This document shows positions 50 through 3,878 of a stretch of DNA of 18,657 nucleotides, piece after piece. The stretch's first letter is position 1, and each line of letters opens with the position of its first letter. Under the pieces are notes generated by a model. The model was not told where the DNA came from and did not search any database. It worked only from the letters and a program-made list of their open reading frames with translations. Origin of the DNA: a virus. Made by a program: the position numbers and the translations under genes. The DNA is taken from the UHGV virus genome UHGV-0107297; one strand, written 5' to 3'.

Positions 50-1603
50 ATGACTGTTCGGATTGTATCAAATGCAGTCAATGCGCTGATTTCTGGCGCT
101 GATGACAACGTGAAACGGCTTGTTCAGGAGATGTTGAGCTATGAAGTGGAGGCTGGTGACTGGAAAGGGACCAGCACGATGTTCAACTGGAGTAAAAACG
201 CGTTCCCGGCTGGGTTTGCGAAGCCAGTTGCGACCAATCTTCTGAAAGCTGGCATCAAATGCGTGCATGTTCGCAAGGAAAAAGCTCCCGCGCTGGGTAA
301 GCCGAATCCGGTGGTTAACCCATTCCCGTATAACCCGGACTACGCGTATCAGGATCAGACAGTGGAAACACTGGTGCGCGAAGGGATGATGATTGCCCAG
401 ATTGCGACGGGTGGCGGTAAATCGAACGTAGCGTGTAAGGCTGCTGCTCGCATTGGTCGTATGACGCTGTTTTTAACCACGCGATCGGTTCTGATGTTCC
501 AGATGGCAGAGAACTTCCAGAAATCCATCGACTACCGCGCGAAGAATGGCGAGCCGTGGCTGAAAGGTCAGAAAGTTGGGGTGATTGGATCTGGTGAGTT
601 CCAGGTATCGCGCCATATCAACGTTGCCACGGTTCAGACCCTTGCTAGTTTTCTCGAAGAGCCGTCGCGCGACGCATCTCCAGAGAAAAAACAGTATCAC
701 CTGAAACGCCGGGAATTGGTTAAGCGCTTCCTGTCCAGCGTTTCTCTGCTGATTCTGGAAGAAGCGCACGAATCATCCGGCTCAAACTTCTACGATATAG
801 CCCGGTTGTGTACCAATGCCGACTACCGTCTGGCGCTGACAGCTACGCCGTTCATGAAGGACTCGACTGAAGCAAATATGCGTCTCATGGCCGTTGCGGG
901 TCGCATCGAGATAAAAGTAACGGAGAAATATTTGATCGACAGAGGTATTTTAGCGAAACCATACTTTTTATATCATAAAATCGCGTACACTCCAGATGAG
1001 GCGCGGATTAGAGTCGAACTTGCTTCAAAACACCTGAATTTTAGGGTTGGAATGAGCACGGCTTACCAGAAAGCCTATCAGTTAGGCATCGTCTATAATC
1101 TGGGCCGCAACGAAGCTATTGTGCGTGAAGCGCTAATGTACAAGAGTCACGGTCTGAACTGTATGACATTGGTTCGTCTGAAGCGTCATGGTCAGATCTT
1201 GATGGAAATGATGAAAGAGAGTGGCCTCAAGGTCGATTTCATCTACGGAGAATCAAACCAGACTACCCGACAAGCAAAACTTAATAGTCTGGCGGCAGGC
1301 AAGATAGATGTTCTCATTGGTTCAACCATTCTGGATGTTGGTGTCGACGTTCCAAGCGTAGGCGCGGTGATTCTGGGTGGTGGCGGGAAAGCAGAAGTTG
1401 AAATGAGACAGCGTGTCGGTCGTGGCTTACGAGCCAAGAAAAATCAGGCTAACGTGTGCTTTATTACCGACTTCATCGACGTGAGCAACAAATACCTCAT
1501 GTCGCATTCATATGAGCGGAAACACATTATCGACACGACGCCTGGGTTTGCCGAGGGGGGTCTTGCCGGTTGGCAGCACATTCGATTTCACTGTTTTGGA
1601 TAG
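50..1603 (+). CDS. Superfamily-2 DEAD/DEAH-type helicase, 517 aa (UvsW/Res-subunit-like core)
   Basis: SD AAGGAAAGAGG before ATG at 50; translation has Walker A IATGGGKS, DExH-like LILEEAHE, motif III ALTATP and motif VI QRVGRGLR in canonical order. Confidence 0.85.
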   Translation: MTVRIVSNAVNALISGADDNVKRLVQEMLSYEVEAGDWKGTSTMFNWSKNAFPAGFAKPVATNLLKAGIKCVHVRKEKAPALGKPNPVVNPFPYNPDYAYQDQTVETLVREGMMIAQIATGGGKSNVACKAAARIGRMTLFLTTRSVLMFQMAENFQKSIDYRAKNGEPWLKGQKVGVIGSGEFQVSRHINVATVQTLASFLEEPSRDASPEKKQYHLKRRELVKRFLSSVSLLILEEAHESSGSNFYDIARLCTNADYRLALTATPFMKDSTEANMRLMAVAGRIEIKVTEKYLIDRGILAKPYFLYHKIAYTPDEARIRVELASKHLNFRVGMSTAYQKAYQLGIVYNLGRNEAIVREALMYKSHGLNCMTLVRLKRHGQILMEMMKESGLKVDFIYGESNQTTRQAKLNSLAAGKIDVLIGSTILDVGVDVPSVGAVILGGGGKAEVEMRQRVGRGLRAKKNQANVCFITDFIDVSNKYLMSHSYERKHIIDTTPGFAEGGLAGWQHIRFHCFG

Positions 1604-1612
1604 AGAGTAAGC

Positions 1613-1891
1613 ATGAGCGAGAAACGCGCTATTAACTGCCAGGTTAAGTTAACCGAAAAAGCAAACGATAAACTAGAGACCTTTCAGAATCGACTGCGTG
1701 AACGCAGCATAAAACTGTCAAAAGCAGACATCATCAATCTGGTGCTGTCCAATATGACGATGGGTGATTTTGATAAGATAGCTACGTCATTAGAGACTAC
1801 TGCAAAGGCTCGTGAAAAGGTCATGAAGATTTACGAAAACTCGGGTATGACCAAAGAAGATCTGGCCGATATTCTAAAACGCCTCGATTGA
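1613..1891 (+). CDS. hypothetical 92-aa protein, translationally coupled to helicase
   Basis: ATG 9 nt after helicase stop (TAGAGAGTAAGCATG); K/E-rich, no motif recognised. Confidence 0.55.
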   Translation: MSEKRAINCQVKLTEKANDKLETFQNRLRERSIKLSKADIINLVLSNMTMGDFDKIATSLETTAKAREKVMKIYENSGMTKEDLADILKRLD

Positions 1892-1898
1892 GCATTAT

Positions 1899-1924
1899 GG
1901 CGCCTTGAGGCGCCATGATTTTCG
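1899..1924 (+). terminator. candidate hairpin terminator/attenuator
   Basis: GGCGCC-TTGA-GGCGCC perfect stem at 1899-1914 followed by ATGATTTTCG; U-tract weak. Confidence 0.3.
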
Positions 1925-1950
1925 TAAAGATAAGGATTTTGTTCGGTACA

Positions 1951-2373
1951 ATGAAACACGTATTACTTCCTCTGGTTGCTGCCTCCGCGTTACTTATCAC
2001 TGCATGTCAATCTCGTCCTATTCCTGTCTCTGAGGCAAAGCCAGCACCGCAGACCAGAATATTCAAATACCAATCTCCGGCGGCATCGACGCTGGTGGTT
2101 ATGAGAGATAAAAGCATGGTGGGCGCCGGTTGCGACGCATCGATCTTCATCAATGGCGAAACCGTTGCAAAACTGGAAACAGGTGAAAAAGTCACTTTTC
2201 ATCTGGATGCCGGAGAATGGATTGTTGGCGCCTCACTCGAAGACGCTGGGCTGTGCGCACTGAATCCTGCTCGTCAGGAACGCGAGACGATTACCAAAGC
2301 TGGCGAGACGAAAGTCTTCCGGGTGTTCACCAGTAATGCTGGTGACATCGATATCTTACCAACGACACTGTGA
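1951..2373 (+). CDS. putative lipoprotein, 140 aa
   Basis: N-terminus MKHVLLPLVAASALLITAC reads as signal peptide with lipobox LITA-C; in-frame alternative ATG at 1915. Confidence 0.6.
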   Translation: MKHVLLPLVAASALLITACQSRPIPVSEAKPAPQTRIFKYQSPAASTLVVMRDKSMVGAGCDASIFINGETVAKLETGEKVTFHLDAGEWIVGASLEDAGLCALNPARQERETITKAGETKVFRVFTSNAGDIDILPTTL

Positions 2374-2377
2374 CGAT

Positions 2378-2905
2378 ATGACGAATATTACTGACATCAC
2401 CTACGGGATTCCTGCAGAAGTCTGGCCGCGCGATTACACCAACGTGGAGAAAGCGCTGATGTTCTGGCGCAAGTCTCTTATTCCTGTAAGGGTCACGATG
2501 GAAGATGGTCAGGTGTTCTGCATGTATGTTCAGGGTCTCATGTCGTCACGCAACAAGGTCGACCTTTGCCCTGCCCCGTTCGACAAAGATAATCGTATAA
2601 GGCTCCCACTTGAGCGAATCAGCACGATTGAATCAGGTGTGACAGAAGGCATTGCACACGACTTCACGGGTCGGACAACGATACACCCAGACTATGTGGA
2701 CAATCGGCCATCTCGCCGTGATTTCTTCAAAATTTGTCGCCAGGCCCATGAGATGCAGAAGTCTATAAGGGTCTACATGGCGGATGGCCGTGAAATTGAG
2801 GGGGTGTCTTCAGGCGTTGACGCTTGTCAGGTCACACTCAACATGGGGGACGGTAGGAAGACAGTCGCCATGTTCGATTGGGTCGAACGGATTTTACCGT
2901 TTTAA
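2378..2905 (+). CDS. hypothetical 175-aa protein with internal duplication; weak Rof/YaeO-like (Rho-binding) resemblance
   Basis: Likely start ATG 2378 (MTNITD) 4 nt after lipoprotein stop; two repeats each with (I/V)RVxMxDG(Q/R)...ERI pattern; Rof link is from memory and unverified. Confidence 0.5.
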   Translation: MTNITDITYGIPAEVWPRDYTNVEKALMFWRKSLIPVRVTMEDGQVFCMYVQGLMSSRNKVDLCPAPFDKDNRIRLPLERISTIESGVTEGIAHDFTGRTTIHPDYVDNRPSRRDFFKICRQAHEMQKSIRVYMADGREIEGVSSGVDACQVTLNMGDGRKTVAMFDWVERILPF

Positions 2906-2920
2906 ATCTATAAGGGTAAT

Positions 2921-2950
2921 AACCGGCTAAGTCCGGTTATTATTTTATTC
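2921..2950 (+). terminator. rho-independent terminator
   Basis: AACCGG-CTAAGT-CCGGTT hairpin at 2921-2938 followed by ATTATTTTATT. Confidence 0.6.
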
Positions 2951-3121
2951 GTCACTTCCCGTTATATTTATTTCCCACAAACTCGATTCCAATTTAAATA
3001 TATAAGGGTGATTGGCTGAATAGAGAATTTATTTAGGCAACACCTTCGAGAAAACGCGTTTTATTTCTAAGATTTTGATTTTTATTGGAGAAAAATTTTT
3101 TCGTTCCCGCATAAAAAACTC

Positions 3122-3150
3122 TTGATTTTAATTTCTGTATATCGATAATT
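3122..3150 (+). promoter_or_regulatory. sigma70-like promoter candidate
   Basis: TTGATT - 17 bp - ATAATT inside a very AT-rich intergenic region (2951-3227) upstream of CDS 3228. Confidence 0.4.
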
Positions 3151-3227: not shown

Positions 3228-3878
3228 ATGTCTAACGTTACCATTTCTAAAAAATCCATTATCGACGCTGCTGTGGTTATCGCTAATGAGTTACAAGTTG
3301 CAGCCAACAACGCTACTCAGACTTATAACAATCATTATAAAAATGGTACACACACAAAAGCGGATAAAGCTAACATGCTTGCAGCGTCTACCAAACTAGC
3401 ATACTTCACCAACAACGTTTTAAACGCTGTTAATGATGAGAAATTAGCTGGTATCTTTTACTACGCGATTAAAGCAAGTAAACAAGCACCTGAAGCGTTT
3501 TTCCGTGAAGCTATGACCAATAGCTATTCACTCGAAAAACTGGTTTATCTGGTTAAATCTATTAAAGCTGGAAAGTGTGTTTATTCCGTCGCTGATATGT
3601 CCGGATCTCGTGTATTCGCTTTAATCGATATGATTAACGACGAGATCGACACGTTCACCAATGGCGCTGTTTTCGATTTAATGAATGAAGCGAAAAAAGC
3701 CAACGAAATAAAATTAGACGCAGGATACACTCAAGCCAACCAGCTTATCAATCTTTGCGAACGTCTGGGACTGGTCGAAAAAATCAAAGGAATGGGTGCA
3801 GCGAAAAACGGATCACAGCAATATCGCTTCGTTAAAAATGATTTTTATAACTATCTGGCTGATGCTTTCAAAGCGTAA
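3228..3878 (+). CDS. hypothetical 216-aa protein, AT-rich gene
   Basis: SD AAGGA before ATG; low-GC composition unlike flanking genes; no motif recognised. Confidence 0.7.
   Translation: MSNVTISKKSIIDAAVVIANELQVAANNATQTYNNHYKNGTHTKADKANMLAASTKLAYFTNNVLNAVNDEKLAGIFYYAIKASKQAPEAFFREAMTNSYSLEKLVYLVKSIKAGKCVYSVADMSGSRVFALIDMINDEIDTFTNGAVFDLMNEAKKANEIKLDAGYTQANQLINLCERLGLVEKIKGMGAAKNGSQQYRFVKNDFYNYLADAFKA

Follow-up and report, generated by a model that had tools for sequence, protein, structure and literature searches.

Helicase module of an SSU5-type phage-plasmid contains a gene for a FljA-family protein with two predicted Sm-like domains

The window analyzed in this study is a stretch of 18,657 nucleotides (UHGV virus genome UHGV-0107297). 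It derives from an E. coli SSU5-type phage-plasmid and shows 99.6% identity to known plasmids. The analysis established the identities of the genes, and covered fold, distribution, synteny and selection as well as transcript levels in lysogens. The conserved helicase module of this phage-plasmid occupies positions 50-2905, and the DNA identity to phage SSU5 across the block is 93%. As a preliminary description of the sequence had stated, four open reading frames are present in this block, and they are tightly packed in the same orientation (+ strand). The same description regarded them as one operon. The co-orientation and tight packing agree with this idea, but a strong hairpin follows the second gene (encoding a 92-aa protein). 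Furthermore, the slot before the fourth gene is occupied by unrelated or opposite-strand genes in other lineages. At the left edge of the window, a -10-like hexamer (positions 5-10, + strand; CATAAT in the window and TATAAT in relatives) was read from the sequence as a putative promoter element of the helicase unit. The -10-like element and the leader ...AAAAGGCACGAAGGAAAGAGGTTTATG upstream of the helicase gene are conserved in L004-L007 and L014. This promoter would drive expression of the helicase and its 92-aa partner. The -35 element of the promoter and a divergent ParB-like operon lie beyond the window edge. An Rfam search of the window found no family.

The first gene (positions 50-1603, + strand) encodes an SF2 DNA helicase of 517 aa, which is a core gene product of SSU5-type phage-plasmids. 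The full SF2 motif set noticed earlier was confirmed in the sequence. The protein matches DEAD, ResIII and Helicase_C in Pfam, and phrog_16 "DNA helicase" with an E-value of 1.8e-93. The matches in PDB were XPBII (E=3e-12) and T4 UvsW (2oca, E=1.2e-7). The SF2 core and the order and spacing of its motifs are as in T4 UvsW (PDB 2OCA) and archaeal XPB/RAD25, and the length is similar. In BLASTP, the alignment with T4 UvsW (429 aa, E=5e-15) was collinear from motif I to the C-terminus; however, the identity is only 22%, and the N-terminal region of about 95 residues has no assignment. Thus, as judged from its sequence, the helicase is a UvsW/XPB(RAD25)-like SF2 enzyme distantly related to T4 UvsW. 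The counterpart in phage Cyrano is annotated as "UvsW helicase". The identity of the helicase in distant phage-plasmid lineages and across genera is 58-72%. The enzyme may act in replication or recombination of the phage-plasmid. Partition-like genes adjoin the helicase gene.

Directly after the helicase gene in every case, a conserved gene for a 92-aa protein is found (positions 1613-1891, + strand). The protein matches phrog_1466 (E=2.3e-49) and, weakly, phrog_4268 "transcriptional repressor". Its homologues are confined to phage-plasmid contigs of roughly 100 kb. A search of PDB with phmmer gave no match. AlphaFold modelled the protein with low confidence (pLDDT 65), and a Foldseek search of PDB with this model found no fold with E<3. 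The N-terminal strand-helix-helix pattern suggests that the protein may be a ribbon-helix-helix DNA binder; because the model is of low confidence and no fold match is meaningful, this idea derives from the sequence pattern. The arrangement had been compared with that of uvsW and uvsW.1 in T4. This analogy did not hold: comparison of the 92-aa protein with the T4 UvsW.1 region by hhalign gave E=0.36, no fold match was obtained, and the two proteins are unrelated. The 92-aa protein is a conserved helicase partner without resemblance to UvsW.1.

At the end of this gene, RNA folding revealed a GC-rich hairpin (positions 1890-1923, + strand) with the core ATGGCGCC-ttga-GGCGCCAT and a short U-run. 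Its predicted free energy is -20.4 kcal/mol (z=-4.5), and none of 200 shuffled sequences was equally stable. In Cyrano lysogens, the homologue of the 92-aa gene (CYRAN_117) is transcribed at 12 times background, and reads for the gene following it are about 12-fold lower. The hairpin is a candidate attenuator, terminator or 3′-end stabilizer between the helicase/92-aa unit and a variable cargo slot, which would begin after it. In the window, this slot holds a lipoprotein gene (positions 1951-2373, + strand; 140 aa), the product of which has a signal peptide and the lipobox LLITAC. The lipoprotein matches phrog_890 "lipoprotein" (E=2.4e-52), its match to DUF2846 is under the cutoff, and no relative was found in PDB. 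The gene is split in pLAO18 and is replaced by other genes in the Klebsiella, Cyrano and Xenorhabdus lineages. The lipoprotein is moron-like cargo of the variable slot.

The fourth gene (positions 2378-2905, + strand) encodes a FljA-family protein of 175 aa. The match to PF03614 covers the entire model (1-170 of 170) with E=1.9e-95 and 318 bits (cutoff, 24). In BLASTP, the protein is 33% identical to Salmonella FljA over 169 aa (E=1e-33). The two proteins have the same length and the same two-repeat architecture, and share an invariant N-terminal DITYG..WPRDY and a C-terminal FDWV.RI. The internal duplication that had been noticed in this protein is real, and corresponds to two Sm-like repeats. 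According to the secondary structure of the model, repeat 1 (positions 2438-2635, + strand; residues 21-86) comprises a helix (21-32) and five strands, and repeat 2 (positions 2717-2899, + strand; residues 114-174) comprises a helix (114-125) and five strands. When single sequences were aligned by the Smith-Waterman method, neither half versus half nor each half versus Rof gave a significant score, and the two halves were out of register in their best alignment. Therefore, profile comparison was used instead, and hhalign of the two halves supports the repeats. An N-terminal helix and a five-stranded bent sheet, namely the Sm-like fold, are present, and the closer structural matches are Hfq and Lsm proteins rather than Rof. 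On the evidence of the model, the FljA-like protein consists of two Sm (Hfq-like) domains joined in tandem.

Profile searches gave borderline matches to Hfq. In P0233, repeat 2 aligns with almost the whole Pfam Hfq model (positions 5-62 of 64), and in P0083, repeat 1 shows a weak match to the Hfq HMM. No family member reached the Pfam gathering score for Hfq or LSM (the best, P0233, scored 26.1 bits, where 27 are required), and the window protein did not match Pfam Hfq. Family-invariant residues of repeat 2 (G142 and D167-W-V-x-R-I172) are located where Hfq carries the Sm2 motif. The protein differs from Hfq and other bacterial Sm proteins in that a single chain contains two fused Sm domains and a family-specific motif takes the place of the Sm2 motif. 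A sequence search of PDB with the FljA-like protein found nothing at E<=10; therefore, the protein has no solved relative. In the literature searched, there was no description of the fold or origin of FljA.

Of the 831 plasmids that carry the FljA-like gene, 341 are from Klebsiella and 62 from Y. pestis. The gene is always located downstream of the helicase gene and never adjoins a flagellin or invertase gene. The dN/dS value is about 0.1, and hosts that lack flagella retain the gene as well. It belongs to the core genes of SSU5-type phage-plasmids, and most of the deep diversity of the FljA family consists of this core gene beside the helicase. The host elements are SSU5, pHCM2, pMT1, pLF82/Cyrano and hundreds of Klebsiella and E. 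coli plasmids. The orthologues in pMT1, Cyrano and pHCM2 (P0061) show 96%, 77% and 63% protein identity, respectively, and the SSU5 orthologue (JQ965645) is annotated as "putative repressor of phase 1 flagellin". The SSU5, pHCM2, pMT1 and pLF82/Cyrano counterparts do not differ in kind from the window gene. In contrast, there are differences from Salmonella FljA. The SSU5-type proteins form a separate clade (bootstrap 95-99.5), and the window gene has neither a preceding flagellin gene nor a link to an invertase; its position downstream of the helicase gene is fixed on phage-plasmids, also in non-flagellated hosts. In the window and eight phage-plasmid loci, tblastn detected no flagellin gene, and no match to a resolvase or invertase was found. 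The upstream neighbours are the lipoprotein gene or other cargo, whereas a genuine E. coli FljA locus, used for comparison, has the order flagellin-FljA. The FljA family and its annotation in SSU5 are already known; the tandem-Sm architecture and the phage-plasmid core status are modest new points. Our literature search found no functional study of the SSU5-type gene.

Downstream of the FljA-like gene, an intrinsic terminator is predicted (positions 2913-2946, + strand) with a 14-bp stem, a 6-nt loop and a U-rich tail (-15.3 kcal/mol, z=-2.8), at which the module would end. The hairpin is kept in five of six lineages, with some two-sided changes in L006. A TATAAGGGT box occurs three times on the + strand: within the gene (positions 2764-2772), where it covers repeat 2 codons for S-I-R-V and includes a rare AGG codon; directly after the stop codon (positions 2909-2917), where it forms the 5′ flank of the terminator; and in the spacer (positions 3001-3009), where it can pair with ACACCTT downstream. 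An invariant box, ATTTATTTAGGCAACACCTT (positions 3027-3046, + strand), is conserved out to Xenorhabdus elements. Positions 2740-3060 thus hold three UAUAAGGGU boxes and a AACACCUU box. RNAalifold predicted AGGGU/ACCUU pairing in the downstream spacer; because both arms are invariant, the pairing carries no covariation evidence. The ATTTAGG..ACAC box was considered as an SP6-like promoter and rejected, given that it occurs once in the window and that a phage RNA polymerase was not seen.

A consensus scan detected a promoter-like site (positions 3122-3149, + strand; TTGATT, a 16-nt spacer and GATAAT) that is conserved in the alignment and may serve the next conserved gene. Directly upstream of the FljA-like gene, no conserved promoter was found, and the sequence there varies with the cargo. 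The next gene (positions 3228-3878, + strand) encodes a conserved protein of 216 aa and follows the FljA-like gene in all lineages. The protein matches phrog_1513 (E=4e-143) and has no match in Pfam, NCBIfam or PDB. In Cyrano lysogens, its homologue (CYRAN_113) is near the detection floor. The 216-aa gene is a candidate regulatory target of the FljA-like protein.

FljA is a textbook part of Salmonella flagellar phase variation, and the fliC leader is common to E. coli and Salmonella. Salmonella FljA is described as binding the fliC mRNA leader and blocking translation, and the titles of the primary papers state post-transcriptional control. These papers are Bonifield & Hughes 2003, Yamamoto & Kutsukake 2006 and Aldridge 2006. 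By analogy, we infer that the phage-plasmid protein would bind a specific mRNA leader and repress its translation or stability. Because the gene is a core gene, is under purifying selection in non-flagellated hosts and is never linked to flagellin, its principal target is more likely to be phage-plasmid RNA or general host RNA than only host fliC. Thus, the FljA-like protein most likely binds RNA and regulates at the post-transcriptional level, with a main target that is not limited to host fliC. We lean, by a modest measure, toward this as the whole explanation of the locus: a helicase module with a FljA-like regulator of mRNA leaders that acts on more than host fliC.

We tentatively consider an origin for this arrangement, which is possible but does not have the better chance. 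The FljA family may originally have been a core tandem-Sm regulator of phage-plasmids, perhaps forming a pseudo-hexameric ring, that bound RNA and controlled element genes via UAUAAGG-type boxes. The adjacent 216-aa gene, which is silent in lysogeny, or the helicase unit would be examples of its targets. Salmonella and E. coli FljA would then be a later exaptation, with the similar AUAUAGGAU sequence at the ribosome-binding site of fliC as its new target.

It is rather unlikely that the gene serves lysogenic motility conversion, in which the phage-plasmid protein binds the fliC leader and stops flagellin synthesis in E. coli and Salmonella lysogens. The benefit might be that flagellotropic phages are kept out, that the host is less visible to the immune system or that energy is saved, and copies in non-motile hosts would be carried along. 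Full-length membership of the FljA family, the invariance of the N-terminal D-I-T-Y-G-x-x-A-E-V-W-P-R-D-Y between FljA and SSU5-type proteins, and the shared fliC leader are consistent with this idea. There is also a precedent: FljA(z66), encoded on a linear plasmid, prevents translation of fliC, and E. coli with that plasmid is non-motile. However, Klebsiella-associated lineages keep the gene intact under purifying selection, Y. pestis pMT1 also carries it, and the partner flagellin gene is absent. The linkage to the helicase is deeply conserved, even in Xenorhabdus elements, and therefore points to a role inside the element. In strain LF82, flagellin mRNA peaks where the Cyrano orthologue, CYRAN_114, is lowest, but this anticorrelation follows the whole flagellar regulon. 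Moreover, flagellin mRNA is highly abundant in LF82 with Cyrano: its level is log2 11.7 in LB, and still log2 ~10 at a CYRAN_114 level of ~7.2. The pHCM2-bearing strain S. Typhi CT18 is motile and H:d-positive. Sequences resembling the fliC leader in the window were chance matches only (best, 12 nt; E=0.1).

The fused Hfq-like domains, the core status in phage-plasmids and the upkeep without flagella make two questions testable: how FljA recognizes RNA, and what use a FljA-like regulator is to widespread, clinically common phage-plasmids. If the phage-plasmid copies repress host flagellin, they would silently change host motility and H-antigen expression. If they do not, they would define a new class of targets for regulators of the Sm type.

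Most databases annotate the protein as a DNA-binding or ligand-sensing transcription regulator. In that case, the Sm-like domains would be sensor or oligomerization modules, and the promoter of the 216-aa gene or the helicase unit would be controlled via the conserved DNA boxes. We judge this improbable: no HTH, RHH or other DNA-binding domain was detected, and the two Sm repeats fill the whole chain. Furthermore, the boxes are invariant while the protein identity falls to 27%, and the post-transcriptional control stated in the titles of the primary FljA papers speaks against it.

The preliminary description had seen a weak resemblance to Rof/YaeO, suggesting that a tandem Rof-like protein could bind Rho and thereby lift the Rho-dependent silencing of the element. 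The fold is indeed common with Rof, but Rof is a single domain, and the tandem window protein belongs to PF03614 and shows no family-level match to PF07073. PF07073 was absent at E<=1 for the window protein and at E<=10 for all 24 family members tested, nine of which matched Hfq. The Rof reading fails because this match, on which the preliminary description had made it depend, is absent. Among 1.84 billion proteins, a profile search found none that was Rof-like. The hhalign probability against a Rof profile was 1-9%, and values of 6-9% are no better than against Hfq; because the listed Rof homologues are all at least 83% identical, the Rof profile is shallow and the power of this comparison is limited. 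In the hhalign register, Rof Y13 corresponds to the conserved Y20. However, the position of D14, substitution of which abolishes Rho binding in Rof, is occupied by T, S, E, K or N in the SSU5-type and FljA groups, and in no case by Asp. The experimentally characterized family member acts on fliC mRNA, not Rho. The Rof/Rho reading is very improbable and should be dropped.

Least credible of all is the idea, raised earlier, that the SF2 helicase is the centre of an anti-phage defence system: PADLOC gave partial matches (PbeA, E=1e-22; type IV restriction enzymes; DruE, DpdF and BrxH helicase cores) and TIGR04095 dnd_restrict_1 a weak one, but these are confined to the generic helicase core, lie far under the NCBIfam cutoffs (59.6 versus 600 bits) and lack partner genes, the other three proteins have no PADLOC match, and the helicase belongs to the core of the phage-plasmid, evolves slowly, is encoded beside partition-like genes and is closest to the phage DNA helicases of phrog_16.

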